NCBI GenBank assembly: GCA_021824065.1
Contig: JAKALU010000003.1
Coordinates: forward strand, 5,553-69,552
DNA length: 64,000 nucleotides
Origin: Nitrospirota bacterium
GTDB taxonomy: Bacteria > Nitrospirota > Thermodesulfovibrionia > Thermodesulfovibrionales > UBA1546
Direction of reading: 5' to 3'
The notes under the pieces are model-generated. The model worked only from the letters and a program-made list of their open reading frames with translations, was not told the DNA's origin and did no database searches. This document shows, one piece after another, positions 8,565 through 61,612 of this stretch. Made by a program: the position numbers and the translations under genes. How positions within the stretch are numbered: position 1 is the stretch's first letter; every line of letters starts with the position of its first letter.

Positions 8565-8667
8565 GGTGCACAAAATAAATCCCTTGCATTTTTAATTCAA
8601 AATATGTTTAATAATCAGAGTTAATAAATATCTTAACTATATGTTATAATTCAGGAGAAAGAACCAC

Positions 8668-10487: not shown

Positions 10488-10502
10488 TTCCCCACCTTTT
10501 AA

Positions 10503-10820
10503 CTACTTTTTCTCGAATTTTATCGTTTTGGGATCGAAAGCAGGATCTATAAGATATGCCTCCCTGAAATATTTTGCAGATTCCTCCATATTTTTAATCT
10601 TATAACATGCATATCCCAAAAGATAGTATGATCGGGCATCCGGTTTCTGAGAGACATATTCTTTAAGATATTTTACAGCAGTCGTGAAGTCTTTTTTTGC
10701 ATATGCCTCAATTGCTTTATCATAAGGACTCCCCTGTGCTAAGGCAAATGAAACCATAAAAATAACAGCAATAATACCGAGAACAAACCTTGCCCCCCAC
10801 TTATTACTTCTTGCTTTCAT
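10503..10820 (-). CDS. Small secreted TPR-like protein
   Basis: 105 aa with an N-terminal signal-like helix and one or two TPR-like repeats (YYLLGYACYKIKNMEESAKYFREAYLIDP). Confidence 0.5.
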   Translation of the reverse strand: MKARSNKWGARFVLGIIAVIFMVSFALAQGSPYDKAIEAYAKKDFTTAVKYLKEYVSQKPDARSYYLLGYACYKIKNMEESAKYFREAYLIDPAFDPKTIKFEKK

Positions 10821-15107: not shown

Positions 15108-15170
15108 ATATTATGGCCTGCTGTAAAAGCATATTAAGGATAATCCCCAAAATATGATATTATTAACGAT

Positions 15171-16493
15171 ATGAAAAAACTGGTATTTTTACTGGCTGTT
15201 ATTCTTATAATTCCCGTATCTGTCAATGCCGAAGTCAAGGAGTATAAGCTTGAAAATGGCTTGAAAGTCCTTATCATCGAAGACCATAAGGCGCCTATTG
15301 CCACTTTCCAGATATGGTATCGCGTAGGTTCAAGGAACGAACCAGTCGGCAAGAGCGGGTTGAGCCATCTTCTGGAGCATATGATGTTTAAAGGGACTCC
15401 TAAATCAGGTGCAAAGGCATTCTCAAAGATAGTCCAGAAAAACGGCGGGGTGGACAATGCATTCACAACAAGGGATTACACAATGTATTACCAGACACTC
15501 GCTTCAGACAGGATGGGCATATCAATAGAGCTTGAGGCAGACAGGATGCAAAATCTTACTTTAGACCCAAAAGAGGTTCTATCAGAAAGAAGTGTTGTTA
15601 TGGAAGAGCGGAGGATGAGGTACGAGGATGACCCGCAGAATTCCTTATACGAAGAAGTGCTGGCTGCTGCATTCGAGTCACATCCGTATCACTGGCCTGT
15701 TATAGGCTGGATGTCTGATATCGCTTCAATAGAAAGGAGTGACCTCTACAATCATTATAAGGCATACTATTCTCCTGACAACGCAGTCATTATTGTCTCA
15801 GGCGATATTAAGGCAGACGATATTATTAAAAAAATAAAGGCGTTGTTTGGAAGCATACCGGCTGTGCCTGACAGAAAACCAGTCACATCAAAGGAGAATG
15901 AGCAAAGAGGTGAACGGAGGGTAAGCCTTAAAAGAGAGGCGGAACTGCCTTATATTATTGCTTCCTATCATGCGCCGAGTTTTCCTGATGAGGACAGCTA
16001 TGCACTTGAAGTGCTGGGCACAATCCTTTCAGGAGGCAAAAGCGCAAGGCTTTATAAATCAATAGTCTATGAAAAAAAACTGGCACTTTATGCCTATGCT
16101 GATTACAGCGGACTTCACAAAGACCCTTATCTGTTTTCATTTGCAGCAACAGCAGCGCCAGGCAAAGACATCAAGGATGTAGAAAATTCGTTTTACGATG
16201 AGACAGAAAAGATAAAGAGCACGCCCCCTTCAGAACGTGAAGTCCAGAAGGCAAAAAATCAAATAGAGGCGTCTTTCATCATGGGACAAGATTCTATATA
16301 TTTTCAGGCAGAACTGGCAGGCATGTTCGAGATGATCGGGGGCTGGAAACTTAAAGAGCAATACCTTGAAGGCATAAGAAAGGTTAAACCAGAAGATGTG
16401 AGCCGGGTTGCAAAAAAATACCTCAATGAAGACAACAGGACAGTCGGGATACTAATTCCTACAAAAAAGCAGGGAGTGAGAAGTGAAAAGTAA
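15171..16493 (+). CDS. M16 family zinc peptidase (pitrilysin-like), catalytic subunit
   Basis: Signal peptide plus the inverted zinc motif HLLEH (HxxEH). Confidence 0.88.
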   Translation: MKKLVFLLAVILIIPVSVNAEVKEYKLENGLKVLIIEDHKAPIATFQIWYRVGSRNEPVGKSGLSHLLEHMMFKGTPKSGAKAFSKIVQKNGGVDNAFTTRDYTMYYQTLASDRMGISIELEADRMQNLTLDPKEVLSERSVVMEERRMRYEDDPQNSLYEEVLAAAFESHPYHWPVIGWMSDIASIERSDLYNHYKAYYSPDNAVIIVSGDIKADDIIKKIKALFGSIPAVPDRKPVTSKENEQRGERRVSLKREAELPYIIASYHAPSFPDEDSYALEVLGTILSGGKSARLYKSIVYEKKLALYAYADYSGLHKDPYLFSFAATAAPGKDIKDVENSFYDETEKIKSTPPSEREVQKAKNQIEASFIMGQDSIYFQAELAGMFEMIGGWKLKEQYLEGIRKVKPEDVSRVAKKYLNEDNRTVGILIPTKKQGVRSEK

Positions 16494-45011: not shown

Positions 45012-46868
45012 TCAGTCCGTAACCTCTAAAAGCTCTCTGCCTTCCCTTATCTGTTCGAAGGTAGTAATATCAATGCCTTTATCTTCGAAATATTCTTTTT
45101 CTACGATCTCGATGTAAAACCTATCAAGTCCGCTATTCTTAAGAAAGTCCTCTCTTAAATTTATATCTTTTTTCTCTACGATTATCGGCAGAAGATGATT
45201 GAGATAGAACGATTCTTTCCTGAGGTCTAAGAGCGCCTTCTCAAATAGCTTTTGAGGCACTTTCCTCGCAAAGCCCTCTTCAGCAAGTTCTCTCCCTATG
45301 TCCTCTCTTATCTCATCCCTCCCCTCTTTAGTATTAAGCCGGGGATAGAAACTGCGCATCCTTTCCTTGAGCGCACCATGCACATGATGATAGAGCCTTT
45401 CTTCATCTCTGATCATTTTCAGTTCAGCAACCACATCCCTCAGGGATGCATCTCCTGCAGAGACTTTTGTAATCCCTTTTGATATAGTATTAATCTTTTT
45501 CCTGCCATAGGCTGTTATATATTTGTTGCGAAGGAGCTCTTTTACAGCTATCTCATCAAAAAGTCCTCTGTCGAGTTTATCAAACTCCTTTTTATTGCCT
45601 ATAAGGCTCCTGAGAGAATCCTCTGTGAAATCCACATTCTCCATAAAAGCTATCTGACTCAGTAATGCCTGGACGTTATCGTACCTGTCAAAGTATGTGA
45701 CTATAGAGCTGAACTCTTCAAAGATACTGAAATCATTTGTTTCACGTGCAATCTCATCACATGCCTTGCCTGTATCGAGGAGTACCTGTTCAAAGCCCAT
45801 ATCACTATGAGAATGTGCCCTGTGTTTTGCCTTTACCAGCCTCACTATATCTTCATTTATTATGTGTTTCTTCAGAGACGGGTCTTTAAAAAAGAGGTTT
45901 TCGAGTATTGATCTGGCCTCCTTGAGATATTCAGGCTCTTTTATCTCCTGTAACTTTTTGCCTCTGAGCAGAAGTTCATCAAGCGTATCGAAAAGGACAA
46001 TCGGGATATTGTTCCTGATGCTCAGGGTTCTCAATCTCCTCAATCTCGCAACCTCTGAAAGTTCGAGGCTGTCTTTAGAGATACTGTTGAGAAGGATATC
46101 CCTGTATTCATCAACCACACGCCTGTTCTCAGGGTGTTTGTACATTATGTCAATCTTCATCCTCTCCTGCTGATAGTTGTCTATTTTATATCTTGCCACT
46201 ATGTCTTCAAGATAAAGTTCTTCCTGCGGTGTCAGCGCCCTTTCATTAGAATAAAATTTTTCAAATGCTCTGTAGAATTCTCCATTTTCCTTGTGGATTA
46301 TCTCAAATATGAATACCGTTGATTTTTGCTCATTCAATTCGCTTATAAAATCGTTCATCAGTTCTGTATCTTTACCTTCCCCAATAAATTCTGTCCTTTT
46401 CAGAAACTTCCCAACAGACCTTAATATCTGTTTCTGCCGTTTTTTGTATTCGCCCCTGAAATCTGAGGACACAAAGAAATAATAGTTCTTTACTGCATTG
46501 CCCTGGAGGAAAAGCCTGTAGAATAATTCGCTGCCTTCGGTATCGTTTGTAAATACAATACTCTCCTCCTCGTCGAGAAACGCACCAAACATGATCAGCC
46601 TGTTGGAAACCTCTCCTTTTATCATGTCCTTCAGCGGTTTTTCTACACCAAACATATATTCGCAGAAACTTCCGCCTGTGCCTTTATAATGGATGCCCTC
46701 TTTAGAGATGGTGAATTCATTCCCCTTTGAGAAAAATCTTATATGGAAAGCTGTTTCTTCATAGAAATATGTACTCTCAACACTGGCTCCACCTACAAGT
46801 GCAAAGAACTCAACTGGTCCGAGATTCCCATGAAGCCTGAGGTCCTTAATCATATAAAAATATAACAC
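45012..46868 (-). CDS. Large conserved hypothetical cytoplasmic protein
   Basis: 618-aa uninterrupted ORF with no motif I can name. The likely start is MIKDLRL at 46853. Confidence 0.55.
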   Translation of the reverse strand: MLYFYMIKDLRLHGNLGPVEFFALVGGASVESTYFYEETAFHIRFFSKGNEFTISKEGIHYKGTGGSFCEYMFGVEKPLKDMIKGEVSNRLIMFGAFLDEEESIVFTNDTEGSELFYRLFLQGNAVKNYYFFVSSDFRGEYKKRQKQILRSVGKFLKRTEFIGEGKDTELMNDFISELNEQKSTVFIFEIIHKENGEFYRAFEKFYSNERALTPQEELYLEDIVARYKIDNYQQERMKIDIMYKHPENRRVVDEYRDILLNSISKDSLELSEVARLRRLRTLSIRNNIPIVLFDTLDELLLRGKKLQEIKEPEYLKEARSILENLFFKDPSLKKHIINEDIVRLVKAKHRAHSHSDMGFEQVLLDTGKACDEIARETNDFSIFEEFSSIVTYFDRYDNVQALLSQIAFMENVDFTEDSLRSLIGNKKEFDKLDRGLFDEIAVKELLRNKYITAYGRKKINTISKGITKVSAGDASLRDVVAELKMIRDEERLYHHVHGALKERMRSFYPRLNTKEGRDEIREDIGRELAEEGFARKVPQKLFEKALLDLRKESFYLNHLLPIIVEKKDINLREDFLKNSGLDRFYIEIVEKEYFEDKGIDITTFEQIREGRELLEVTD

Positions 46869-46933
46869 ATGCCCGTTAAAATATTCTATTGCCCTTTATT
46901 GCCGAAAAGGGCCGTATTTGGTTATCATATCTT

Positions 46934-48901
46934 ATGAAGAAGAAATTTTTGCCCTCTCCCCTCGAAGGGGAGGGATGGGTGGGAGGGGCTATTTCCTGTG
47001 TTCTGCTTATAGCAGTGTCTTTTACCTTTTTAAGCATTGCAGCAGCACAGGGGACAGATGGGAAAGCCCTTCTTATTAAGGGTAAAAATGAGATGGATGA
47101 CGGCAGATATGCCGAGGCAATTGAGAGCCTCTCTGCAGCGTATGAGAAACTGCCGGTTATCAGAGATTATATACTTTTCTGGCTATCAAAGGCCTATCAA
47201 GAGTCGGGCAATATCACTGAATCAAATTCCAAGATAAAAGAACTGCTCAAAGGCTATCCTGACTCGCCCTTAAGGAAAAAGGCACGGGCAATGGAGATTA
47301 AAAACATTGTTGCCTCAAAGGACATGCCGCATGATTTAAAGACCTTTGAATCTTATATCAAAGACTATCCGGAAGACTACGAAATAAAGTTTTTATTTGC
47401 ACAGCTCCTCAAAAAGAAAGGAGAGGCAGAAAAGGCAAAAACAATATTTAAGGACATATACGTCAACAGCGCAGGGACACTTTCAAAAATAGCATATAAT
47501 GAATTGACACCCTCTGATATCGCCCTGCACGACCTTATTGAAAAGGCATCAAATCTCATAAATGTTATGGAATTTACAATGTCTGAATCTATACTCAGAG
47601 AGGCCCTGCTGAGAGATGACGGACAGCGCAAACTTGAGATTCTTAAGAAATTAGGGCATTCAATCTTCAAACAAAAAAGATATAAGGAATCAGCAGAGAC
47701 ATATGAAAAGGCGGGTGATTATTATTCGAGGGCAAAGGCACTTTATATGGCAGGAGAAAAGACTGCGTTTGGCACCGCCTTAAAAAAACTGGCTTTGATG
47801 GGAGACAGGAGGACAGGCTCGCTTTTGATTCTGGCTGCATCTGCCAAGCGGAGGAATGGCGAGATTGATGAGGCACTGAGTATTTATAGAAATATAAAGG
47901 CAAATTATCCCGCAGAGGCGGAGAATTCTTTATGGGGCATTGGCTGGACTTATTATCGCAGCGGTGACTATCAGAAAGCCCTTGACGTCTTTACAGACCT
48001 TTGCAGTGTTTACAACAGCTCAAAATATCTCTACTGGAAGGCGCAGTCATTGGAAGCGTTGGGCAAAGACTCAGACCATATTTACAGACAGCTTGCAGAG
48101 AGAGAGCAGGATTTTTACAGTGTACTTGCACAGATAAGAAAGGGGTCAAGGGGTCAAGGGGTCAAGAGTTCGGGGGTTGGGTTCTCAATTAATTCAGACT
48201 CAAAACTCAAGCCCTTTCAGTCCGAGAGAATTGACATCCTGATGGAACTCGGCATGAAAAAAGAGGCAGTTACAGAACTATCTGCCGTGGCCAGAAAGGC
48301 AACCAGCCCTGATGAGCTTGCTTCTGTTTCTCTGAAACTGCAGGAGGCCGGGGGATATACATTGGCAATAGCCCTATCATCAAAGCTGCCTTATAGAGAT
48401 GTGACGCACAGCATTTTATATCCGCTTGCCCATTGGCCCGTTGTCAAGGAAGTATCTGCCAGATATGAAGTTGACCCTTTTGTTGTTCTTTCTGTCATGA
48501 GAGAGGAAAGCCGCTTCGATCCCGGGGCTCGCTCCCATGCAGGGGCACTTGGGCTTATGCAGCTAATGCCACAGACAGCCTATTTAATAAACAGAAAGAT
48601 TAATCTGAATATAACTTCTCGGGAACAGATTCATGATATAAAGATAAATATAACCCTCGGCTCATATTACATAAACTCGCTGATAAAAGAGTTCGGCTCA
48701 TTACCAGCAGCAGTAGCAGCTTATAATGCAGGAGAAGACATTGTAAGGAAATGGCAGAAGGCAGGTAATTATAAGTCATTGGATGAATTCGTTGAGGATA
48801 TCCCTTATGACGAAACAAGAAATTTTGCCAAGCGTGTTATCACTACTTACTTTGAGTATCTCAAGTCTGCGGGTGGAAAAGAGATACCGCAAATCTTATA
48901 A
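46934..48901 (+). CDS. slt: Soluble lytic murein transglycosylase (Slt70-like)
   Basis: Start moved to the ATG at 46934 (MKKKF...). Superhelical TPR-like N-domain. C-terminal SLT catalytic motif ESRFDP...GLMQLMP...AYNAG. Confidence 0.85.
   Translation: MKKKFLPSPLEGEGWVGGAISCVLLIAVSFTFLSIAAAQGTDGKALLIKGKNEMDDGRYAEAIESLSAAYEKLPVIRDYILFWLSKAYQESGNITESNSKIKELLKGYPDSPLRKKARAMEIKNIVASKDMPHDLKTFESYIKDYPEDYEIKFLFAQLLKKKGEAEKAKTIFKDIYVNSAGTLSKIAYNELTPSDIALHDLIEKASNLINVMEFTMSESILREALLRDDGQRKLEILKKLGHSIFKQKRYKESAETYEKAGDYYSRAKALYMAGEKTAFGTALKKLALMGDRRTGSLLILAASAKRRNGEIDEALSIYRNIKANYPAEAENSLWGIGWTYYRSGDYQKALDVFTDLCSVYNSSKYLYWKAQSLEALGKDSDHIYRQLAEREQDFYSVLAQIRKGSRGQGVKSSGVGFSINSDSKLKPFQSERIDILMELGMKKEAVTELSAVARKATSPDELASVSLKLQEAGGYTLAIALSSKLPYRDVTHSILYPLAHWPVVKEVSARYEVDPFVVLSVMREESRFDPGARSHAGALGLMQLMPQTAYLINRKINLNITSREQIHDIKINITLGSYYINSLIKEFGSLPAAVAAYNAGEDIVRKWQKAGNYKSLDEFVEDIPYDETRNFAKRVITTYFEYLKSAGGKEIPQIL
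46952..46988. repeat. Nested C-run/G-run element in the slt 5' end, translated as PSPLEGEGWVGG
   Basis: The sequence is CCCTCTCCCCTCGAAGGGGAGGGATGGGTGGGAGGGG, with inner stem CTCCCCT-cga-AGGGGAG. Confidence 0.7.
48142..48181. repeat. 8-nt word array GGGGTCAA x3, then GAGTTCGG GGGTTGGG, inside slt
   Basis: Read directly. Translated as GSRGQGVKSSGVG. Confidence 0.85.
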
Positions 48902-49631: not shown

Positions 49632-50285
49632 TTACAGCTTAATCAAACCCTTTGCAATTGCAAATTTTATAAGCCCTGCGCGGCTGTGTATGTCAAGCTT
49701 CTCGGAAAGATTTGTCTGATGAGCGATAGCTGTTTTTGCGCTTATTCCGAGGATGTCTGCTATCTCCTTGTGTGTATGCCCTTCTGCTATCAGTTTTAAA
49801 ACCTGCTTCTCCCTATCTGTTAGAATCTCATAAGGGTCTTCCGTTGTTTTGCCCCTCTGGATGCCACGATATTCATCAATAACACTCGCTGCAATGGATG
49901 GATGTAAATATGCCTCTCCACCGGCAATGGCTTTAATTGCGGTTATGAGGTCTATTCCAACGGCCCTTTTAAGCATGTATCCGGACGCCCCTGCCTTGAG
50001 AAAGCGCTTTACGTACTCTTTGTCTTCGTATTGTGTTAGAACAAGCACCTTTGTATTAGGGTCGATTTTTTTAATCTCTACAAGTGCCTCCAAACCTCCG
50101 AGTTTTGGCATTGCTATATCCATAAGTACAACGTCGGGCTTGAATTTCTTGACCCCTTCTATGGCCTCTATCCCATCAGCAGCTTCTCCGACCACCTCTA
50201 TATCGGATGACATTTTAAGAAATGCTGCAATACCTTCTCTCACCAGCGCATGGTCGTCTGCGATCATCACTCTTATCTTAGACAT
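49632..50285 (-). CDS. NarL/LuxR-family response regulator
   Basis: Start set to MSKIRVMIADDH at 50285, 2 nt after the kinase stop. REC domain (DVVLMDIAMP) followed by a LuxR HTH (LTDREKQVLKLIAEGHTHKEIADILGIS). Confidence 0.9.
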   Translation of the reverse strand: MSKIRVMIADDHALVREGIAAFLKMSSDIEVVGEAADGIEAIEGVKKFKPDVVLMDIAMPKLGGLEALVEIKKIDPNTKVLVLTQYEDKEYVKRFLKAGASGYMLKRAVGIDLITAIKAIAGGEAYLHPSIAASVIDEYRGIQRGKTTEDPYEILTDREKQVLKLIAEGHTHKEIADILGISAKTAIAHQTNLSEKLDIHSRAGLIKFAIAKGLIKL

Positions 50286-52110
50286 TCCTATCTCCAAGGG
50301 GTTCAAAAGGGATCCATAGGTTGATTCTTGTTCCGCTGCCGGGCTCAGAACATATCTGCAACCGCCCGTCCAGAAGATTTGCCCTCTCTTTCATGCCTAA
50401 TATACCAAGCCCTCTCCCATCCTCGGTACGTTTTAAGGCAGATTGCACATCAAACCCTTCGCCGTCGTCTTCTATATTAACGGCTATAGAATCGCTGAGA
50501 TATTTTAATATAACAAAAACATTTTCTGCTGCTGCATGTTTTGAAATATTCATTATGGATTCCTGTATTATTCTGAAAAATGTTGTTTCAATACGATAGC
50601 TGAGTCTCTGCTCCTCAACGCCCAGGACATTGAAAAAATATGTTATGCCTTTCTCTCCCAGATGTTTGTCAAGCAGCCACCTGATGGACGCCTCAAGCCC
50701 GAGGTCATCTAATATTGCAGGCCTGAGATTCTGGATTATATTGTGTATTCCATCGAGTGTGGTAAGCACGATGTTTTTCATCTCCTCTATTTTATCTAAA
50801 GGAGGGCTTTCAAGATACATATTGCACATATTAATCTTCATCAAAAGGGCTGACAATGTCTGCATTGTTTCATCGTGCAGACCCCGGGCTATCCTTTTCC
50901 TTTCATCCTCCTGAGCGGATATAACCTTTTTCAAAAGGTTTTGTACCTTCTGCTGGCTTTCCCTTATCTGTTTTGTCCTCTCGATTACCCGCTGTTCAAG
51001 TTCAACATTATACCGTTGAAGCCTTTCAAGTGAATCAGCCAGCTTGACACGCATAACTTCAAAGCTGGAGCTCAACATCCCGATTTCGTCTATTCCGCCG
51101 AACTCAATTGACTTCGACATATCCCCTTTTGCGATCTTGTGGGTAGCTCTAATCAGTTCATGCACAGGCTTTACTATGCTTTTGCTCATCCCGATTGCAA
51201 TTATCAGCGCAATCCCTATCGAGCCTATGCTGAAGGCCAAAAAAGTCTTTTTAAGTTTTGTGGCTGGCGCAAAGACATCTTTTTCCGGCTGAATTATAGA
51301 CACCCCCCAGTGTGCCATCTTGAGCGGGGCAAACGCCAGTATGTCTGTTGAACGGATAGTGCTGCTCCCGGTCTGTTTTTCCTTGTCAGAATGGCACCTA
51401 TGGCAAGTCCTGATCTCGGATCTTTTCTGTGCTATTAGATTTCCCAGAAACCTGTTATGGTCACTGCCTGTAAAAATCCTTTGGGGATTGTTGGACGCTA
51501 TAACAATGCCATGGCTGTCAACTATTTCCAGATAAGTATTAGGTTCTGTAGGCACTGCCTTAATAGTCTGGCCAATCCTGAGATTGGTGGGATCAATCTC
51601 TCCGCCCACCACACCAACAGTATCACCATTTTTATTTTTTAGAGGCACCAGAGCATATATAACCTTCTTTTTCATCGGCTCTACAGTGTATATATCTGAT
51701 ATCACGGGTTTGCCATCCAGAATAATTCTGTTTATATAAGGAATGCTCACAAGGTTTACATAGTTTTCAAACCTGGAAGGATAGCTTAAAACTATATTCC
51801 CTGTTTTGTCCAGAAGAAAAATACCATCTGTGAATATCGAATACCGATAGGCTGTTTTCAACGCCTCCTTTTCAGTCTCCCAGTCGTTGTCGCTTAGATC
51901 TACCTTTCCTGAAAGGGAGATATCATAAAGCCGGGTGAGGCTTCTCTCTAAAAGAAGGTCAATGTTATTCGCTATTATGCTGGCTAATGTCAGCCTGTTT
52001 TTCAATGAGCGGTCTATGGTTTCATCAACTGTTAAGTAACCTATTATCCCCAGACCTGTGGAAATGATAATTACATTGAGAATTATTGCAATAATTATTT
52101 TTTTCTGCAT
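50278..52110 (-). CDS. Sensor histidine kinase: periplasmic Cache-like domain bearing a CxxCH motif, then HAMP, HisKA_3 and HATPase
   Basis: 610 aa. TM1 at the N-terminus and TM2 at FLAFSIGSIGIALIIAIGM. CHRCH at residues 236-240 (nt 51391-51405). H-box RIARGLHDETMQTL. G-boxes DDGEGF and GLGILGM. Confidence 0.88.
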   Translation of the reverse strand: MQKKIIIAIILNVIIISTGLGIIGYLTVDETIDRSLKNRLTLASIIANNIDLLLERSLTRLYDISLSGKVDLSDNDWETEKEALKTAYRYSIFTDGIFLLDKTGNIVLSYPSRFENYVNLVSIPYINRIILDGKPVISDIYTVEPMKKKVIYALVPLKNKNGDTVGVVGGEIDPTNLRIGQTIKAVPTEPNTYLEIVDSHGIVIASNNPQRIFTGSDHNRFLGNLIAQKRSEIRTCHRCHSDKEKQTGSSTIRSTDILAFAPLKMAHWGVSIIQPEKDVFAPATKLKKTFLAFSIGSIGIALIIAIGMSKSIVKPVHELIRATHKIAKGDMSKSIEFGGIDEIGMLSSSFEVMRVKLADSLERLQRYNVELEQRVIERTKQIRESQQKVQNLLKKVISAQEDERKRIARGLHDETMQTLSALLMKINMCNMYLESPPLDKIEEMKNIVLTTLDGIHNIIQNLRPAILDDLGLEASIRWLLDKHLGEKGITYFFNVLGVEEQRLSYRIETTFFRIIQESIMNISKHAAAENVFVILKYLSDSIAVNIEDDGEGFDVQSALKRTEDGRGLGILGMKERANLLDGRLQICSEPGSGTRINLWIPFEPLGDRNV

Positions 52111-52159
52111 TTAGGTTAAAAAATGCTTTTTTAACCATACCCCTTAACAGTATAATCTG

Positions 52160-52900
52160 TCAAGTTGCCACCTTATCTTTCGGTATGCCCTCACCTTCTG
52201 AACCCTCAAGAGATATATTAAAAAGTCTTTCATATTCCAGAGGGTGTTCATGTATCATGCGTTCTTTTGAGATTTTGCCAGTAAAGATTACTGTATCTAA
52301 CGGGAATACCTCAGGGCTGAGTATAGAGTTATATATATGCCATAAAGCAACAATGAGAAAGACAAGGAATGCCTGATTTGTATGCAAGATCTTGGCGGTC
52401 GGGATAACCTCTCCGGGAAGGAATCGGGTAACAAGCGTAGGGAACCAGAGTGCCATCCCTGTTACAACCATCAAAAGCCCGCTGATAAGAACACCCCAAT
52501 ATTCAAACTTCTGCTTATAGTCATAGCGGTCACATCTTGCAGGATGACTTTCTATGCCAATGTAATACTTGATATTATGTATGGCATCAAGAAAATCCTT
52601 TTTGTTTATAATCATCGACGTCTGCCATTTCTTGAAGACAACTCCTATAATCCCGGCTATAATATGCACTGCAATAACAATTGAAAGGGCTATCCCTGTG
52701 TATCGGTGAATCAATCTTACATTGTCAATGCCACCTAACTGGAAAATAAACCACTGGGAAAGGGCAAGCGAATAGAATTTCTGAGAAAGTCCAGTTACAC
52801 CCAATATCCCGAGGGTTATTATAGTCATCCAGTGTTCAATAATGCGGGTGGTACTAAATCTTCTAATCTTGTCTTCCTTAATTATATTATCGCCTTTCAT
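52160..52900 (-). CDS. Dihaem cytochrome b, FdnI/HydC/PhsC-type (Ni/Fe-hydrogenase b-type cytochrome family)
   Basis: Start set to the ATG at 52898-52900, preceded by GAGGAGGG. RFSTTRIIEHW is the entry motif. Four TM helices with conserved His (HRYTG, VHI, ILH, WHIY). Confidence 0.8.
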   Translation of the reverse strand: MKGDNIIKEDKIRRFSTTRIIEHWMTIITLGILGVTGLSQKFYSLALSQWFIFQLGGIDNVRLIHRYTGIALSIVIAVHIIAGIIGVVFKKWQTSMIINKKDFLDAIHNIKYYIGIESHPARCDRYDYKQKFEYWGVLISGLLMVVTGMALWFPTLVTRFLPGEVIPTAKILHTNQAFLVFLIVALWHIYNSILSPEVFPLDTVIFTGKISKERMIHEHPLEYERLFNISLEGSEGEGIPKDKVAT

Positions 52901-52911
52901 TTGACCCTCCT

Positions 52912-54366
52912 CTATCTGGTAACCGCATAGCGCCATATATGTAACAATATCTGCAGGATCAACCCAATCATCGCAAAGGGGATAAAAACCCTGTATATCA
53001 GGCTAACAATAAAAACCATCGGAGCCCTTGTCAGGCTTGGTTTATAATGAGAGAGCCATGCATCCTGAAAATTTTCAGTTGCACCCTCATGACATTTCTG
53101 GCATCTCTTTGCCAGGTTTGCCTTTATTATTGCTGCATCAGAGCCTATGACACTGCTTATATTATGGGTGCCGTGGCAATCAGTACAAACAGCTATCTGC
53201 CTTGCTGGTTTGTAAAGCGTCTCTTTCTGTTTTTTGTAAAATCCCAAGGTAACTCCGTGAAAGTCCGAAAGATAGGTTTTTACAACATCAGTAGAAAGTC
53301 CGTACTTCTCCATAATCTCTTTGTTAGCGTGGCAGTTTCCGCATATATCGGGCACCCTCTCGCGGTAATCAGACGTTCGAGGGTCTGTTATGTTGTGCGC
53401 AGTGTGGCAGTCTATACATATAGGGACATCCTGAATGTGCTCGCTGATAAGCGCCTTACCATGAATGCTTTTTGCATATATCTCATATATTTCGGGGTGA
53501 CACCTCTGACACTTCTTTACAACAAAATTCTTCTCCTTTCCCCCGGGGGGTATCGAGTGAGAGCCGTGGCAGTCAGTACAGACAGGAGCCTTCAAGTTAC
53601 CCTGACTGAGCATTGTATAATGGATGCTTTCCATAGTTTTAGTATATTTATCAAAATGGCATCGCCTGCAACTCTCTGCAGAGGCAATGGCATAATCCCT
53701 CTTGGTCCTGAAGTTTCTCTGAGGGTGTTCTTCAGAGGAAAAGCCATAATGGCAGTCCGAACAGGTAAGTTTATTATGTACAGAGGCATCTATCAATAAT
53801 GCATCCACTTTAAGTGCTAATGTTTCGCCATCTTTAAAAACCATGTTTAACTTATGCCCGTGACAGCTCAGACAGTACTGTTTTTCAGAGGCAAATATTT
53901 TTCCACCCGCTACAGGCATAATTGAATGAGAACCATGGCAGTCAGTGCAAACATGTGACTTGTTTTCACTCTCTTCCCCCAGTAAACTGGCATGTATAGG
54001 CTTTGCACTGATCTGTTGATCTGTATGGCAATGCTTACATACAAGAGAAGATCTTATTTTATATTGCTTTTTGCTCCTGAATTTTCTTGCAGGGTGTTTG
54101 TCCGAGGAAAACTCATCGTGACAATCAGAACATGTCAGAGAATTATGAACAGAGGCTTTGAATTTTTCAGCATCCACATAAGCTGTTACAGATTCGTTAT
54201 TCTCAAATTTTTTGACTATCCCCAATTGTGCATGACACCCTAAACATTTCTGCGCTTCTTCCGAGAGAGCGGTATCTGCCGCACTAACGCTGTCAATAGA
54301 TATTATAAAAACCCAAAAAAGAGACAACAGAAAAAGGATTATTCTCTCCCCGCTCTTCATAGACAC
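52912..54366 (-). CDS. Membrane-anchored 13-haem c-type cytochrome
   Basis: 484 aa with a signal peptide. 13 CxxCH motifs counted. Residues of about 40-165 and 170-300 form a tandem 4-haem duplication. C-terminal TM helix MVFIVSLIYRVFIPFAMIGLILQILL. Confidence 0.9.
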   Translation of the reverse strand: MSMKSGERIILFLLSLFWVFIISIDSVSAADTALSEEAQKCLGCHAQLGIVKKFENNESVTAYVDAEKFKASVHNSLTCSDCHDEFSSDKHPARKFRSKKQYKIRSSLVCKHCHTDQQISAKPIHASLLGEESENKSHVCTDCHGSHSIMPVAGGKIFASEKQYCLSCHGHKLNMVFKDGETLALKVDALLIDASVHNKLTCSDCHYGFSSEEHPQRNFRTKRDYAIASAESCRRCHFDKYTKTMESIHYTMLSQGNLKAPVCTDCHGSHSIPPGGKEKNFVVKKCQRCHPEIYEIYAKSIHGKALISEHIQDVPICIDCHTAHNITDPRTSDYRERVPDICGNCHANKEIMEKYGLSTDVVKTYLSDFHGVTLGFYKKQKETLYKPARQIAVCTDCHGTHNISSVIGSDAAIIKANLAKRCQKCHEGATENFQDAWLSHYKPSLTRAPMVFIVSLIYRVFIPFAMIGLILQILLHIWRYAVTR

Positions 54367-54469: not shown

Positions 54470-55708
54470 TCAATGTGACTCCTTATATTCCGGGTGTTCT
54501 CTTATAACAGGCATACGGTTCAAAATCCATCTGAAGATGAGAATGTGAATAGTGATTATGGATGCAACAATAGCAACCTCCTGCCATGGCGGAATAATAT
54601 GGTGGAGATGACCCGGCAGATTCCAGTTGAATGCTATTATTGAAACATTGATCCTGTTTACTATAATCCCTAAGACAGCATAAAAGGCTCCGAACCTGAC
54701 AAGGCCAGCACTATTGTTTTTAACACCATATGTCAAGACAATAGCAGGGAGGAGAACGAACCCCAGTATCTCAACAAGAAACCAGTTCCCATAAGGGGTG
54801 CTCAGTAAGTGCCAGTTGTCATCATGGGCTACGCCAACTAACTTCAATGCGAGATAGACAAACAAACCGACACATGTACCTTTTCCAAGGCCAACGGTCA
54901 GTCTGTCAAGGCTTTCGAGGAAATTGTGGTCAGTGGCGCTTCTCAGAAACCGGGCTGCAAGGGTGCTGATAACAATTACCATGGCAAGGGCAGCATATAT
55001 GCTTGAGCTGAGGAAAAACACCGGTATATACGAGGAAAACCAGAGGGGATGGAGTTTTCCTGGAACGAGCAGGAACATTGCGCCGAGGGCAGACTGATGG
55101 AGTGTTGAAAGGATTATCCCGGCAATGGTCATGCCAATAACTATCATTGTTGCCCATTTATAAACCCTTCTTGACTTAATCCATTCCAGTATTGCCTCGC
55201 TGAATTCAAGGAACTGGACTGTAAGATAAGTGGCAACATGCCATGCAACGAGAAAAAGAACCGAGGCTGTGCCGAAACCGATTATCATAGGGTAATATAT
55301 ACGCCATGGCCTTCCAAGGTCGGTTAAAAGGTAAATTACAGCAAACAGGTAGCCCAGGAATCCTGTAAGGACTCCAAGTCTCACAAGGGGTTTGTATCTT
55401 TTAAAACCAAATATGTAATAGGCTGTCCCCATTACAAATCCAGTGGCTGAAAGTGGGACGCCACCAAAGAGTCCCCAGCCGAGTAAGATTCCCCATGGAT
55501 ATTCATTTGAAGCATGAGTAGCTGAAGCAAGCCCAAATACAAAACGGATAGCAATAACAGGGATGCCGATGCTCAATATAATAGCTGCAACGATATTGAA
55601 AGGAGTAATGAGTCTTCTGCTGTATTCAGGCCATGACATCCCCATAAGCAGTTTGTCCATAAACCATGATCTAAAGTTATCTGTTCCAGTTAATGTCCCG
55701 TTACTCAT
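54470..55708 (-). CDS. NrfD/PsrC-family polytopic quinone-interacting membrane protein
   Basis: 412 aa with about 10 TM helices. ATGA start/stop overlap with the upstream FeS gene. Its position next to a Tat FeS subunit is typical of the family. Confidence 0.8.
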   Translation of the reverse strand: MSNGTLTGTDNFRSWFMDKLLMGMSWPEYSRRLITPFNIVAAIILSIGIPVIAIRFVFGLASATHASNEYPWGILLGWGLFGGVPLSATGFVMGTAYYIFGFKRYKPLVRLGVLTGFLGYLFAVIYLLTDLGRPWRIYYPMIIGFGTASVLFLVAWHVATYLTVQFLEFSEAILEWIKSRRVYKWATMIVIGMTIAGIILSTLHQSALGAMFLLVPGKLHPLWFSSYIPVFFLSSSIYAALAMVIVISTLAARFLRSATDHNFLESLDRLTVGLGKGTCVGLFVYLALKLVGVAHDDNWHLLSTPYGNWFLVEILGFVLLPAIVLTYGVKNNSAGLVRFGAFYAVLGIIVNRINVSIIAFNWNLPGHLHHIIPPWQEVAIVASIITIHILIFRWILNRMPVIREHPEYKESH

Positions 55709-57402: not shown

Positions 57403-57810
57403 TTATTTGTTTTCACCTTTTTCAATCTCGGTTTCTTCCTTCTTGCCCTTCTTTTTACCAGCTAAATATGCCTCTGTGGGTCTCCATCCAAAGGATGCGC
57501 TTCTGCCCGCCAGTGACAGAACGCTGTTGATAGCTACTGTGCTGAGCGCAAACATAAAACTGAAAGGCAGGGCAATCACATAGGCCAGCCCAATAAACGG
57601 GGCAGCCGCTACCTTACCCATAGTCCTGAGCGTATCCTTATATCCTGTTTTCTTAATAAACTCTAAATCTTCCTTGCCGGAGTGTATCAAGGTCTTGAAA
57701 GGCCTGTGTTTCAATACCTCCCAGTAAATGATGTATCCTGCGATTGCCGAGACGGCTATAATGTACTCCACCCCCTTAACATGGGTCATGAAATCAAAAA
57801 GAGTATTCAT
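57403..57810 (-). CDS. Small membrane protein, paralog 1, ending in SFGWRPTEAYLAGKKKGKK plus an acidic tail
   Basis: 135 aa with a GGAAGGAGG RBS and two or three hydrophobic helices. The C-terminal motif is shared with 57889-58236. Confidence 0.65.
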   Translation of the reverse strand: MNTLFDFMTHVKGVEYIIAVSAIAGYIIYWEVLKHRPFKTLIHSGKEDLEFIKKTGYKDTLRTMGKVAAAPFIGLAYVIALPFSFMFALSTVAINSVLSLAGRSASFGWRPTEAYLAGKKKGKKEETEIEKGENK

Positions 57811-57888
57811 CTTATTCCTCCTTCCTAATTGTTAAATTACTAACCTTTTTTGTAAACAAAGTTAACCTACCTTAAAATCTTATGCCGA

Positions 57889-58236
57889 CTATGATGAATC
57901 GGTTGTCTTATCATTTTTCTTCTTCCCTTTTCTCTTGCCAGCTAAATATGCCTCTGTAGGTCTCCAGCCAAAGGATGCGATATTCCACATGCCTTTGAAA
58001 ATCTTTTCTGCCAGCAGTGATATCATCATCGCTATCGCTATGAACGGCAGAAATATCACATACAGCAGTCCCAGAATCGGTCCCAACAGTAACATAACGC
58101 TGGGTGGAAACCTGGTATACGTTGAATTCTTATCTCCTGGAAGCACCCCCTCATTTGGGATATCTATCCTGCCTCCATTCGATAAATCCCAGTAAGTCCC
58201 CTTTCCTACCTTATGTCCTCCGCTGTATTTAAGCAT
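57889..58236 (-). CDS. Small membrane protein, paralog 2, ending in SFGWRPTEAYLAGKRKGKKK
   Basis: 115 aa with a GGAAGGAGG RBS. The N-terminal soluble part is GKGTYWDLSNGGRIDIPNEGVLPG, followed by a TM hairpin. Confidence 0.65.
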   Translation of the reverse strand: MLKYSGGHKVGKGTYWDLSNGGRIDIPNEGVLPGDKNSTYTRFPPSVMLLLGPILGLLYVIFLPFIAIAMMISLLAEKIFKGMWNIASFGWRPTEAYLAGKRKGKKKNDKTTDSS

Positions 58237-58363
58237 CTTTTTTCACCTCCTTCCTCATCCTTGTATTTATTTCCCTGTTCATCTTGATTACAAGATAGCA
58301 GATATTAAAGGCTAATATAATTGGAAGAAGTTCCTAATTTTTATAGGGATTTTGTCTTAAATT

Positions 58364-58488: not shown

Positions 58489-59028
58489 TTAGCGAAGCAT
58501 ACTATCTGCGACCTTTATCAGATCAAATGGAGGTGATTTCATTACTACTGTTACCCTGTATTTCCCTTCATCCCATGAAATCCGGCTGCACGGCTCATCA
58601 TTCTTACAGAGACCAACCTCGAGTACTGCATTTCTGCCTTTTAAAGGGTAAGTGACTTTTTCTTTAACCTGTAATATCTTTATTTTCTTATCAGGGACAA
58701 AATTTGCACCGGCAGCAACCTGAGATATTATAAGGGCAATATCTCCCCTCTCTCTATGTTTGAACTCCATTACTACTGCAGTGAAAGGTTTATTCTGAGC
58801 CAGTATTTCCGATGGAGGCCATGTAAAGTTTTGAGGGAAATATGACGGAACATATATGTTTTTGATATTTAATCGTAATCTGACTTCTTCAACACTGCTG
58901 TATCTTCTTATGGCATCCTTCTGAATTGCCATTGGCAACCAGTTAAGAATCTTTAAAACTGCAATCAGGATTACAACTGTTATTGCAAAATAAAAAAAAC
59001 TGAAGAATTTCCTATGCACTGTTTTCAC
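58489..59028 (-). CDS. Membrane-anchored hypothetical protein (single N-terminal TM, beta-rich ectodomain)
   Basis: 179-aa ORF flanked on both sides by the REP-like element. No motif was recognised. Possibly an accessory partner of the upstream M56-like protease. Confidence 0.5.
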   Translation of the reverse strand: MKTVHRKFFSFFYFAITVVILIAVLKILNWLPMAIQKDAIRRYSSVEEVRLRLNIKNIYVPSYFPQNFTWPPSEILAQNKPFTAVVMEFKHRERGDIALIISQVAAGANFVPDKKIKILQVKEKVTYPLKGRNAVLEVGLCKNDEPCSRISWDEGKYRVTVVMKSPPFDLIKVADSMLR

Positions 59029-59037
59029 TCCTCATAT

Positions 59038-59147
59038 TGAAGCTCTCTGCAGCAAGCTGCAAGGCTTCGAGATGTAAAAAACTATTCCTTCTTTCATATC
59101 CGCTCACTAATCCAGCAGCGGGAATGCGCTCGCTGTGCCTTCTCATC
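59038..59147. repeat. REP-like element, split copy (GAAGCTCTCTGCAGCAAGCTG ... about 55 bp ... GGGAATGCGCTCGCTGTGCCTTCTCATC)
   Basis: Both halves match 58436-58483, separated here by an insert. Confidence 0.65.
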
Positions 59148-60138
59148 ATACAATAAAATAGTTTATTATTGTAATTACAATAAATGTGACTATAAACTTA
59201 AACCATCCGCCGTCTTTTTCATGTGCCAATCCCTGTTCAAGCTGCATAATTCTATTTTTTATGAGCATATTATGGCTATACTCTTCGAGTGCTGCTCCTA
59301 TTTTTGAGGGTTTTGTAATCTGAACCGGGGCGATGTCTTCATGTGTATAGTAAAGTTTTTTAAGGGTCTCAATCAGCGCATAAGGTTTCCCTGTTAAAGT
59401 TACTGCGATGTTGTCACATATCTGTTCATCTTCCTGGACAATCTTTCTAAATTCTACAAGGACTATCGGGTTAAAGAACATCGATATCCTTAAAAGAAAG
59501 AGCATTAAGATTAAAGGCTGCCTACTCCTTGTAATATGGGCAATTTCATGGGCCAGTGCTGCCTGTATCTGTTCTATATTAAGCATTTTTACAAGGCCGG
59601 TAGATAGGAAGATTGCAGTATTCTTACCGGTTGTAGAAAACAATATAAAATCATTGTCATCAATTATAAAGATATCAGGTTTTTCCACAGGTAAAGACTC
59701 CAATGCCTTGCTGACAATAGAATTATCATCAGGGGTTTCCCCCTCGGATGTAGATTCTTTTGATTCGATGGTATGCCTCAAGATAGGGATTATCTCCTGC
59801 AAAAAAGATATCAGGGTTGTGATAAATAAAATAATAATAAACAGCAGGCTTAATGGAAACTTCCCCCATAATTCCAGACTCAGCCACCTGTTAATATCAA
59901 AAAGCGCTTCCAGTCTGAAGTAGACTGACCCTCTCCCAGAATTTATCGTTTGATATACTGGGAATGAAAGAATCGGGGATATAATGACTATATAACGAAA
60001 TCTCTGCTTTATTAAAGGATTGTTAATCTTCCATGCCTGAATGGATCTGTCCACTATAATAGCAGCTATTAACGCGTGGCATATTGACTGGGCTATATAC
60101 ATGCCAATATAGGAGTTGAAAAAGTTTGAGATGCTCAT
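59146..60138 (-). CDS. M56 (BlaR1-like)/M48-type membrane zinc metalloprotease homolog
   Basis: 330 aa. N-terminal TM helices, the HExxH motif in ALAHEIAHITRSR followed by a TM segment, and a C-terminal TM helix. Confidence 0.65.
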   Translation of the reverse strand: MSISNFFNSYIGMYIAQSICHALIAAIIVDRSIQAWKINNPLIKQRFRYIVIISPILSFPVYQTINSGRGSVYFRLEALFDINRWLSLELWGKFPLSLLFIIILFITTLISFLQEIIPILRHTIESKESTSEGETPDDNSIVSKALESLPVEKPDIFIIDDNDFILFSTTGKNTAIFLSTGLVKMLNIEQIQAALAHEIAHITRSRQPLILMLFLLRISMFFNPIVLVEFRKIVQEDEQICDNIAVTLTGKPYALIETLKKLYYTHEDIAPVQITKPSKIGAALEEYSHNMLIKNRIMQLEQGLAHEKDGGWFKFIVTFIVITIINYFIV

Positions 60139-60226: not shown

Positions 60227-61612
60227 TTAATGGTAAATTATCAGCCCGTATTTTTTCATCTTATTAAAAAGGCTCTTTCTGCTGATGCCGAGACGGGCTG
60301 CAGCATCCTTCCTCTTCCACCTCACCTCTGTTAAGGCATCTATTATCAGTTTCTTCTCCTCTTCTGATTTCACTGTCTCTATCCTGTCTTTTACCTTTAT
60401 CTCTCCATGCAATTTTCTACCTCTGCCTTCAGATATAAGTTCTGTTACTGTTTCACCTGTGATTAAGTCATTGTCTTCAAGGATTATCGCCCTTTGAATC
60501 AGATTCTCCATCTCTCTCACATTCCCGGGCCATTGGTAATTCAGAAAAAAACTTATTGCAGAGGCTGAAATGCCTTTAAATTTTTTCCCTATAGCCTTGC
60601 TATATTTTTTAAAAAAATAATCTGCCAGCAGCGGGATATCTTTTCCCCTCTCTCTGAGTGGCGGTACGTTAATCTCGAATACCTTTACCCTGTAAAAAAG
60701 ATCATCCCTGAACCTTCCCTCTGCAACAGCGGCATTGAGGTTCCTGTTCGTTGCAGATATCAACCTCAAATCAACTTTTATGGCTTTTGTACCTCCAAGC
60801 CGCTCTATCTCTTTATCCTGCAGCGCTCTTAAAAGCTTTGCCTGCAATCCCAGGGAAAGGTCTCCTATCTCATCGAGAAAAATACTGCCTCTTGACGCCC
60901 TCTCAAATTTACCTATATGCTGCCTTGTTGCGCCTGTAAAGGCACCTTTTTCATAACCAAACAGTTCTGATTCAAGCAGTGTCTCCGGAATTGCTGCACA
61001 GTTCACGCTTATGAATGGGTTGTCCCTCCTATCGCTGAGCTTATGTATGGCCTTTGCTATAAGCTCCTTGCCAGAGCCGCTCTCGCCGGTTATCAGAACC
61101 GTAACATCTGTTGCCGCAACCTTTTTCGAAAGTTCAAGCGCTCTCTTCATCTCATCACTCTCGGCTATTATCTCATCCTTAAGGGTTTTCTCAAGACTCT
61201 CTGTCTTAAGGGTCTCAAGCTCTCTCTGTAATTCATATCTTTCGATTGCCCTGTTTATAACTGTCCTTACGATTTCTATATCAACAGGTTTTGTGAAAAA
61301 GTCGTATGCCCCATATCTGATTGATCTCATTGCAAGCTCTTTTGAGCCGTATGCTGTTATCATTATCACAGGCATAGGATACCCTTCGGCCTTTATACGT
61401 TCAAGCACCTCGATGCCGCTCATACCGGGCATCTTTTCATCAAGGAGCACGAGGCTATAGCTATCATCTTTCAAAAAGCCAATGGCATCATGGCCCGTGG
61501 ATGCAATATCAAACTGAAAACCTTCTTTCCTCAGAAGTTCTCCAAGAAAGAACTGGATACTCGTGTCATCATCCACAATCAATATTTTATGCTCGTTTGT
61601 AGCAAATGCCAT
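60227..61612 (-). CDS. Sigma-54-dependent response regulator (NtrC family: REC + AAA+ + Fis-type HTH)
   Basis: 461 aa. REC (LVLLDEKMPGMSG), Walker A GESGSGKE, GAFTGA loop (EKGAFTGA), and C-terminal HTH AAARLGISRKSLFNKMKKYG. Confidence 0.92.
   Translation of the reverse strand: MAFATNEHKILIVDDDTSIQFFLGELLRKEGFQFDIASTGHDAIGFLKDDSYSLVLLDEKMPGMSGIEVLERIKAEGYPMPVIMITAYGSKELAMRSIRYGAYDFFTKPVDIEIVRTVINRAIERYELQRELETLKTESLEKTLKDEIIAESDEMKRALELSKKVAATDVTVLITGESGSGKELIAKAIHKLSDRRDNPFISVNCAAIPETLLESELFGYEKGAFTGATRQHIGKFERASRGSIFLDEIGDLSLGLQAKLLRALQDKEIERLGGTKAIKVDLRLISATNRNLNAAVAEGRFRDDLFYRVKVFEINVPPLRERGKDIPLLADYFFKKYSKAIGKKFKGISASAISFFLNYQWPGNVREMENLIQRAIILEDNDLITGETVTELISEGRGRKLHGEIKVKDRIETVKSEEEKKLIIDALTEVRWKRKDAAARLGISRKSLFNKMKKYGLIIYH

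Follow-up and report, generated by a model that had tools for sequence, protein, structure and literature searches.

Results

A sensor histidine kinase carries a CHRCH motif in its periplasmic domain

The window analysed here is a 64,000-nucleotide stretch of contig JAKALU010000003.1 from a Nitrospirota bacterium, and our subject is a gene on its minus strand that encodes a 610-residue sensor histidine kinase and lies beside a cluster of cytochrome genes. The periplasmic domain of this kinase contains a CHRCH sequence, which we predict to be a site of haem c attachment. The features of the gene are listed below in the order of the protein.

50278-52110, minus strand: sensor histidine kinase gene, 610 amino acids (aa); open reading frame (ORF), translation and Pfam domains
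52033-52101, minus strand: first transmembrane helix (TM1), residues ~4-26; Kyte-Doolittle window >1.6 and flanking charges
51301-51993, minus strand: periplasmic dCache_1 domain, residues 40-270; PF02743 (E = 4.6e-17), AlphaFold2 model and Foldseek
51457-51459, minus strand: codon of H218, a candidate distal-pocket residue at the start of the strand 2-3 helix of the proximal module
51391-51405, minus strand: CHRCH, residues 236-240, predicted haem c attachment through C236 and C239, with H240 as the proximal ligand
51181-51249, minus strand: second transmembrane helix (TM2), residues ~288-310; hydropathy
51040-51189, minus strand: HAMP domain, residues 308-357; PF00672 (E = 4.3e-12)
50716-50904, minus strand: HisKA_3 dimerisation and phospho-acceptor domain, residues 403-465, with H-box His412; PF07730 (E = 2.9e-10)
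50302-50586, minus strand: HATPase_c catalytic domain, residues 509-603; PF02518 (E = 1.1e-13)

The topology was derived from hydropathy, flanking charges and domain order. Pfam and hydropathy together gave the order TM1, dCache_1, TM2, HAMP, HisKA_3 and HATPase_c, with ~260 residues between the hydropathy peaks at 4-26 and 288-310. This agrees with an earlier reading of the same DNA made from the letters alone (hereafter the sequence-only reading), which had described two TM helices around a periplasmic domain of about 250 aa, followed by HAMP, a HisKA_3-type H-box and an ATPase domain. The Pfam scores were 62.8 bits for dCache_1 (cut-off 45), 41 bits for HisKA_3 (cut-off 24) and 52 bits for HATPase_c (cut-off 26.4). 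The same reading had called the periplasmic domain Cache-like; the Cache fold was recovered, although the wording was too cautious, as the domain is a true dCache_1 (PF02743). No methyl-accepting chemotaxis protein (MCP) signalling domain was found by Pfam in the kinase or in 69 scanned relatives.

The charges flanking TM1 put the N-terminus (MQKK) on the cytoplasmic side. Because TM1 and TM2 enclose the CHRCH motif, and the HAMP domain that follows is necessarily cytoplasmic, we call the motif periplasmic, and the cytoplasmic placement that had been named as a danger to the haem proposal does not apply. The translation confirmed a single CHRCH at residues 236-240; it is the sole CxxCH of the kinase, and C236 and C239 are the only Cys residues between the TM helices. 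In a domain composed like this one (2 Cys, 5 His, 261 aa), a CxxCH has an analytical probability of ~1.5e-4, and one arose in 21 of 200,000 simulated sequences.

The motif is conserved in a large family of kinases

A word-indexed search with residues 1-316 returned 52 relatives, nearly all from Nitrospirota, Thermodesulfovibrionales or Dissulfurispira assemblies, and C-H-x-C-H was present in every one that covered the site, save two with CRHG. A second word-indexed search with a diverse profile returned the same Nitrospirota fragments, with no named or cultured relatives and no chemoreceptors. When one genome per species was scanned, 80 Nitrospirota loci were obtained, which made 85 loci together with five contigs fetched earlier. 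The kinases of these loci are 45-79% identical, and 84 of the 85 kept CxxCH (82 as CHxCH and 2 as CYxCH).

An exhaustive profile search of 1.84 billion cluster representatives yielded 3370 matches at E ≤ 0.001, including 216 at E ≤ 1e-30. We examined 143 representatives, namely those listed beyond the sequences already collected, which are mutually <50% identical. CxxCH occupied the same alignment column in 103 of them, while ~10 ended before the site, nine had a decayed motif and ~24 were motif-free. Retention of CxxCH in homologs, on which the sequence-only reading had made its proposal depend, was thus observed both among the close loci and among the distant representatives. By their source names, members of the wider family come from Chloroflexota, Dehalococcoidia and Tectomicrobia besides Nitrospirota, and their annotations go no further than 'cache domain-containing' or 'GAF domain-containing' protein. 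All 69 motif-bearing representatives that were scanned are kinases with the architecture dCache_1-HAMP-(GAF)-HisKA_3 or HisKA-HATPase_c, and there was no chemoreceptor among them; the dCache_1 profile itself was matched by 65 of the 69. These kinases probably form a large family of haem-based redox sensors that has not been described before.

The decayed forms of the motif were CSHG, CRHG, CHHSF, CxxC without His and CxxxCH. A motif-lost subgroup comprises P0014 (locus L005, 3444-5039), P0030, P0059, P0062, P0068, P0069 and P0087, with CRHG, CSHG, CHHSF and similar sequences. Proteins with a decayed motif were nearest to motif-bearing Nitrospirota members, and the sequences point to secondary losses. 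This statement uses the nearest-neighbour result only; a midpoint-rooted neighbour-joining tree gave no clean split between haem and non-haem types. Several homologs appeared to be disrupted by frameshifts or assembly artefacts: P0020, on a 1.9-kb Logan contig, joins a Cache N-terminus to cytochrome CxxCH repeats, and several kinase homologs on long contigs (loci L001 and L004) are split into two or three ORFs.

These alignments also bear on whether the motif holds haem at all. If the motif were a thiol/disulfide redox switch, or if its two Cys and two His bound Zn, Cu or Fe, the conservation of all four residues would be explained, including that of H237, which haem attachment does not need. 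Two representatives (P0077 and P0114) also keep CxxC without the final His. Either role is nevertheless improbable. Among 100 motif-bearing representatives, the CxxCH spacing and the final His were 100% conserved, a five-residue stretch cannot give four ligands to one tetrahedral metal, and the genomic association is with haem proteins rather than with metal homeostasis genes. In addition, the site is periplasmic and the organisms make many c-type cytochromes, whose maturation systems need little beyond CxxCH. We consider it likely, from the sequence evidence, that haem is attached to the kinase.

The motif lies in the membrane-proximal module of a double Cache domain

Modelling of the periplasmic region, which the sequence-only reading had proposed, gave a confident double Cache structure whose membrane-proximal module holds the motif. 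For residues 25-295, the AlphaFold2 model, computed from a 20-sequence alignment, had a mean predicted local distance difference test score (pLDDT) of 84.5 and a predicted template modelling score (pTM) of 0.81. It is a canonical double Cache, in which two tandem PAS-like alpha/beta modules, one distal (~78-184) and one membrane-proximal (~193-275), stand on a long N-terminal helix. The best Foldseek matches in the Protein Data Bank (PDB) were the ligand-binding domains of PctA, Mlp24, KinD, Tlp3 and DctB (E ~4e-12 to 1e-10, probability 1.00).

The proximal module of the model consists of strand 1 (193-198), strand 2 (202-206), a helix (219-228), strand 3 (232-237), a loop (238-254), strand 4 (255-262) and strand 5 (268-275). 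C236 and H237 close strand 3, whereas C239 and H240 open the strand 3-4 loop. In a PAS-like module, a helix such as 219-228 usually forms the pocket wall. H218 stands where this helix begins, and both it and the motif border the proximal-module pocket. H240 is invariant, and H237 is 98% conserved, only where the motif is present. The candidate ligands of the predicted haem are H240 on the proximal side, H218 and H237.

The kinases without a motif suggest how the site arose. In motif-free sisters, the loop has a median length of 21 residues as against 24, and T-H-x-x-S-E-E-G is found where haem-type members read T-C-H-x-C-H. Because the two loops are nearly equal in length, the motif looks like a substitution in an existing loop, which fits better than insertion of a cytochrome fragment as proposed for sCache_heme, and the insertion origin was set aside. 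A comparison of the motif region with the dihaem cytochrome 2fw5 gave no significant match (E = 0.64).

The structural matches raise the question of whether the kinase is an ordinary dCache_1 sensor. PctA/B/C, Mlp24, Tlp3, KinD and DctB have their fold and Pfam family in common with the kinase, but they bind small organic ligands mostly in the distal module, hold no cofactor and lack a proximal CxxCH. If the kinase also bound a small organic ligand in the distal module, its motif would be structural only and the gene order would reflect co-regulation. This explanation would suit the fold, which is that of amino-acid and organic-acid sensors, the motif-free sisters with a loop of the same length, and the lineages that lost the motif and kept the gene. 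We regard it as very improbable, because, across phyla, nothing else in the periplasmic domain is as well conserved as the motif, while the residues of the distal module are conserved only within Nitrospirota and poorly in the wide family. The cytochrome b fusion described below would also be hard to explain in this way.

The kinase family differs from known haem c sensors

Covalent haem c has been described in the extracytoplasmic sensors DcrA, GSU0582, GSU0935, Tll0287 and sCache_heme (PMC8396549, PMC3460858, PMC12889525, 10.64898/2026.05.25.727664). Within the Cache superfamily such sensors have been shown experimentally in the sCache_heme family, which a 2026 preprint calls the first Cache domain with a covalent cofactor (PMC12889525). 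The sCache_heme/Tll0287-like domains (DUF3365, PF11845; also found in the Pseudomonas azotoformans CHH receptor) resemble the kinase in being extracytoplasmic Cache domains with a single CXXCH. Their motif is in the strand 3-4 connection of a PAS-like module, which is the same topological site; they are often fused through TM and HAMP segments to signalling outputs; and they are enriched in Nitrospirota (PMC12889525).

The two families differ in several respects. sCache_heme is a single Cache, whereas the kinase has a double Cache with the motif in the membrane-proximal module. The CXXCH of sCache_heme is on a short inserted helix; that of the kinase, at the end of strand 3 and in a poorly modelled loop, seems to involve no insertion relative to haem-free relatives. 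Unlike sCache_heme, the kinase family reads CHxCH with a conserved second-position His, and every one of its 69 scanned members is a histidine kinase. It is also common in Chloroflexota, where sCache_heme is reported to be rare (PMC12889525). Membership in PF11845 was rejected after permissive profile scans, which gave no match for the whole protein at E ≤ 0.01 or for the proximal module alone at E ≤ 10. Similarly, 3B42, 3B47 and 5B82 were not among the 37 PDB profile matches at E ≤ 10, which comprised double-Cache domains free of haem, together with weak matches to unrelated proteins (chiefly phototropin and SNAP-25). The sequence-only reading had pointed to Geobacter precedents for the kinase; haem c sensors of that kind do exist, but they are single-Cache PF11845 proteins with no detectable relation to it. 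Since no relation to PF11845 could be detected, the kinase family looks like a separate acquisition of haem c. Full-text searches of the literature library at hand found no haem-bearing double Cache.

DcrA of the sulfate reducer Desulfovibrio vulgaris is a periplasmic haem c transmembrane sensor with a proposed role in sensing oxygen or redox potential (PMC2886117, PMC8396549). Compared by description only, it is like the kinase in having covalent haem c on the periplasmic side of a transmembrane sensor, a feature that is predicted in the kinase. DcrA is, however, an MCP, unlike the kinase and its relatives. The DcrA motif, CHHCH, fits CHxCH, and its periplasmic domain is of single-module size.

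The kinase belongs to a conserved cytochrome operon

The genes around the kinase are listed below in the order of their coordinates.

49632-50285, minus strand: NarL/LuxR-type response regulator with REC (PF00072) and GerE helix-turn-helix (HTH; PF00196) domains; Pfam
52134-52163, minus strand: promoter-like TTGACA-18-TATGGT in the 49-nt gap before the kinase gene, consensus match only
52160-52936, minus strand: FdnI/HydC-type cytochrome b, 258 aa; PF01292, formate dehydrogenase gamma-like
52912-54366, minus strand: 13-haem cytochrome c, signal sequence at the N-terminus and hydrophobic anchor at the C-terminus; 13 CxxCH, Pfam c7/c3
54470-55708, minus strand: HmcC-like membrane subunit of the NrfD family, found in long-form operons only; PF03916, NF045714
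55705-56715, minus strand: Tat-signal 4Fe-4S protein, HmcB-like; Fer4_11, NF045715
56758-57252, minus strand: tetrahaem c3-type cytochrome, 164 aa; four CxxCH and one CxxxCH
57403-58236, minus strand: two paralogous membrane proteins of 135 aa (57403-57810) and 115 aa (57889-58236)
58489-60138, minus strand: M56 (BlaR1-like) peptidase (59146-60138) and a 179-aa membrane protein, p179 (58489-59028); Pfam

The cytochrome b gene ends at 52160, so that 49 nt separate it from the kinase start, as had been reported. The regulator had been said to begin 2 nt after the kinase stop, but no start codon is found there. Its one plausible start is the ATG at 50285-50283, 7 nt downstream of GGAG, which gives MSKIRVMIADDH; this ATG overlaps the last codons and the stop of the kinase gene by 8 nt (ATGTCTAA), indicating translational coupling. 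The promoter-like match in the 49-nt gap suggests that kinase and regulator might also be transcribed separately. Two further overlaps, of 25 nt between the 13-haem cytochrome and cytochrome b (52912-52936, if the first ATG of cytochrome b is used) and of 4 nt between the FeS and NrfD genes (55705-55708, minus strand), suggest translational coupling within the operon. Because 13-haem and 4-haem cytochromes are encoded in the operon, the host presumably has a cytochrome c maturation system.

Neighbours were counted by tblastn of the window proteins against the 85 loci. Cytochrome b adjoined the kinase in all 85, a multihaem cytochrome was present in 80, with most of the others cut by contig ends, and a NarL-type regulator followed the kinase in 82. 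Multihaem cytochrome, cytochrome b, kinase and regulator are the invariant core. The operon occurs in two forms. The short form is limited to the multihaem cytochrome and cytochrome b, and the long form, to which the window belongs, adds the c3-type, HmcB-like and HmcC-like genes, which were found in 25-28 of the 85 loci (NrfD/HmcC-like in 28). The M56 gene was found in 55 loci and p179 in 62.

Outside Nitrospirota, the kinase of a Dehalococcoidia member follows NrfC, NrfD and cytochrome c genes, and another Chloroflexota member is not adjacent to cytochromes. The Dehalococcoidia contig, L086, encodes two haem-motif dCache kinases, at 8001-10799 and 13491-15857; the one that adjoins NrfC-NrfD-cytochrome c carries CHSCH and is accompanied by a GerE-type regulator, and in the other the motif is CHTCH and the regulator is of the OmpR type. 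We also found a natural fusion of cytochrome b and kinase (P0133, with cluster mate P0203), 910 aa long and present on at least 10 contigs, outside the lineage of the Nitrospirota loci; examples are L088 8001-10733, L089 6640-9372 and L090 5637-8369. It consists of Ni_hydr_CYTB (20-200), dCache_1 with CHECH, HAMP, HisKA_3 and HATPase_c, and it shares 42% identity with the cytochrome b of the window across 217 residues of its N-terminal part (E = 2e-67). The fusion gene stands among multihaem cytochromes, and a GerE-type regulator follows it. The fusion is direct evidence of a physical partnership between cytochrome b and kinase. Together with the near-invariant adjacency of the two genes, it argues for physical coupling of the kinase to the electron-transfer chain, as judged from gene organisation.

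The electron-transfer genes resemble two described systems. Like the Desulfovibrio hmc operon, that of the window specifies a transmembrane redox complex; its subunits include HmcB-, HmcC- and HmcD-like proteins, and c3-type haem domains occur in both. The 164-aa cytochrome resembles the C-terminal part of HmcA and TmcA. The HmcB-like protein scored 411.8 bits against NF045715 (cut-off 420) and the HmcC-like protein 423.3 bits against NF045714 (cut-off 550), both below the equivalog cut-offs. The HmcD-like part is the weakly similar N-terminus of the 135-aa membrane protein; this protein and its 115-aa paralog end in the common motif SFGWRPTEAYLAGK(K/R)KGKK, and neither has a Pfam family. The 16-haem HmcA and HmcE/F have no counterpart in the cluster, which has instead the 13-haem and 4-haem cytochromes and an FdnI-type cytochrome b. 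The hmc operon carries its regulator genes, rrf1 and rrf2, at the 3' end, as does the operon of the window, but in the latter the pair is a haem-motif kinase and a NarL-type regulator. In the CbcL-type inner-membrane cytochromes of Geobacter, an FdnI/HydC-like dihaem cytochrome b is joined to a multihaem c domain. Compared by description only, the operon core next to the kinase has the same parts, a multihaem c protein with a C-terminal anchor and an FdnI-type cytochrome b, but as two genes, and a sensor kinase always follows them.

Two other regulatory genes lie upstream of the operon. A gene for a sigma-54-dependent regulator (REC, AAA+ and Fis-type HTH; 60227-61612, minus strand) is directly upstream of the M56 gene, has no cognate kinase beside it and could be a second regulator of the region. 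p179 had no family match, and no BlaI-type repressor was in sight near the M56 gene. Elsewhere in the window, a 618-aa ORF (45012-46868, minus strand), between a TPR/SLT lytic transglycosylase gene (46889-48901, plus strand) and a TPR-like ORF, had no Pfam match at E ≤ 0.01.

A putative dyad operator precedes the operon

K-mers enriched between p179 and the first gene of the operon led us to the dyad AAATAGGAA-n-TTCTTCCAATTGT, which is represented in the window by one site ~85 nt upstream of the first operon gene.

58317-58340, minus strand: conserved dyad operator AAATTAGGAACTTCTTCCAATTAT, 24 bp; position weight matrix (PWM) score 32.2, unique in the window

With the PWM, which was built from 12 sites, scores >9 were obtained in 56 of 60 orthologous gaps, as compared with a 95th percentile of 6.6 for random 250-nt pieces of the same loci. 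In 1.2 Mb of loci, 79 of the 83 matches scoring ≥16 fell in the p179-operon gap. The operator also stays with the cytochrome operon where M56 and p179 are displaced (L032) or absent (L005). It was not found in the Dehalococcoidia or fusion loci. A pattern search of the whole window with 3 mismatches performed no better than chance, and only the PWM and comparative scans were informative. The dimeric GerE-type regulator encoded at the operon end would be the natural candidate to bind this putative operator. The sequence-only reading had assigned the adjacent cytochrome genes to the kinase as its target, and that link is now backed by the near-invariant synteny, the cytochrome b::kinase fusion and the conserved dyad. 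From this gene and site arrangement, it is likely that kinase and regulator control the adjacent operon.

Discussion

Our preferred reading, which we hold with modest confidence, is that the kinase is a haem-based periplasmic sensor of the redox or ligation state of its partner cytochromes and that it controls their operon. Once the protein has been exported, the cytochrome c maturation system would join one haem c to C236 and C239, and H240 would be its proximal ligand. The haem site would be in the membrane-proximal module of the double Cache, near the membrane surface. Electron exchange with the 13-haem cytochrome and the cytochrome b complex may set the redox or ligation state of the haem; where the operon is of the long form, the c3-type cytochrome may take part as well. 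By analogy with Cache-HAMP kinases, a change of haem state would shift the proximal module and the helix that leads into TM2, and HAMP would relay the shift to the HisKA_3/HATPase core. Domain logic suggests that the kinase then phosphorylates the translationally coupled NarL-type regulator, which would bind the putative dyad operator before the cytochrome operon, whose genes include those of kinase and regulator. Such regulation could match the expression of the electron-transfer module to the redox status of the periplasm or the quinone pool.

Several observations weigh against this reading. The motif is decayed in 9 of the 135 complete relatives, although the architecture is kept, which means that haem cannot be the sole route of signal input; at L005, the only decayed-motif locus examined, the cytochrome b neighbour and the operator are retained. 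The distal Cache module could have a ligand of its own. Model confidence was low, at 242-250, in the loop that follows the motif. H237 is near-invariant although haem attachment does not need it. On the regulatory side, the nearby sigma-54 regulator and the M56 sensor-protease could also control the operon.

The sixth ligand presents a further difficulty. The sequence-only reading had suggested that both the CxxCH and a distal Met or His ligand should be conserved; the former is, but the alignment of relatives contains no conserved Met or Lys in the periplasmic domain, and H218 is variable. At the 85 loci, residue 218 is His in 54, Arg in 23 and Tyr in 8, and it is His both in 92% of the motif-bearing representatives and in 20 of 24 motif-free relatives. 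With Arg or Tyr in 31 of the 85 orthologs, and with His conserved where the motif is missing, H218 was rejected as an obligatory sixth ligand. Residue 218 also co-varies with the form of the operon, being His in 35 of 42 short-form loci and in 7 of 28 long-form loci. This variation and co-variation indicate a pocket residue rather than an obligatory axial ligand. Short-form loci mostly combine His with CHRCH, and long-form loci mostly combine Arg or Tyr with CHVCH, CHQCH or CHSCH; the window locus is one of five long-form loci with His and CHRCH.

A pocket without a conserved sixth ligand would also suit an attached haem that sensed a diffusible small molecule such as NO, CO, O2, sulfide or nitrite, with the cytochromes as the regulated target only. 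His, Arg and Tyr, the residues found at 218, are typical distal-pocket hydrogen-bond donors. Moreover, haem c single-Cache domains fused to signalling outputs are selective NO sensors, and GSU0582 and GSU0935 bind NO and CO (PMC12889525, PMC3460858). The near-invariant adjacency of the cytochrome b and multihaem cytochrome genes and the fusion argue instead for coupling to electron transfer, and we consider small-molecule sensing unlikely as the whole explanation. The two readings are not mutually exclusive, and we lean only slightly towards redox state, rather than a diffusible ligand, as the signal.

A stronger form of our preferred reading is tentative, and we doubt it more than we credit it: three proteins may form a hard-wired electron-sensing complex, with the kinase as its read-out subunit. 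In it, the 13-haem cytochrome would serve as the periplasmic antenna and the dihaem cytochrome b as the link to the quinone pool, with the haem c of the kinase, close to the membrane, on the same electron path. The signal would then be electrons passed by protein-protein contact, and the cytochrome b::kinase fusion would be the single-polypeptide form of the complex. In such a complex, H237 could ligate the haem of the partner protomer or a neighbouring haem.

We propose that these kinases are a second, probably independent, family of haem c Cache proteins with a characteristic cytochrome partnership. If haem attachment is true, Cache domains would have acquired haem c a second time, apparently independently, and this would be the first haem c within a double Cache, a very common architecture, and the first in a membrane-proximal module, a part whose signalling role is still poorly understood. 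The family is large, with >100 clusters at 50% identity, and so far it is found only in poorly studied anaerobes, namely Thermodesulfovibrionales and related Nitrospirota, and Dehalococcoidia and other Chloroflexota. The predicted regulator, operator and regulon are directly testable. The pairing of the kinase with a multihaem cytochrome and cytochrome b, including their fusion, offers a concrete system for redox sensing of periplasmic or extracellular electron-transfer chains in these organisms.

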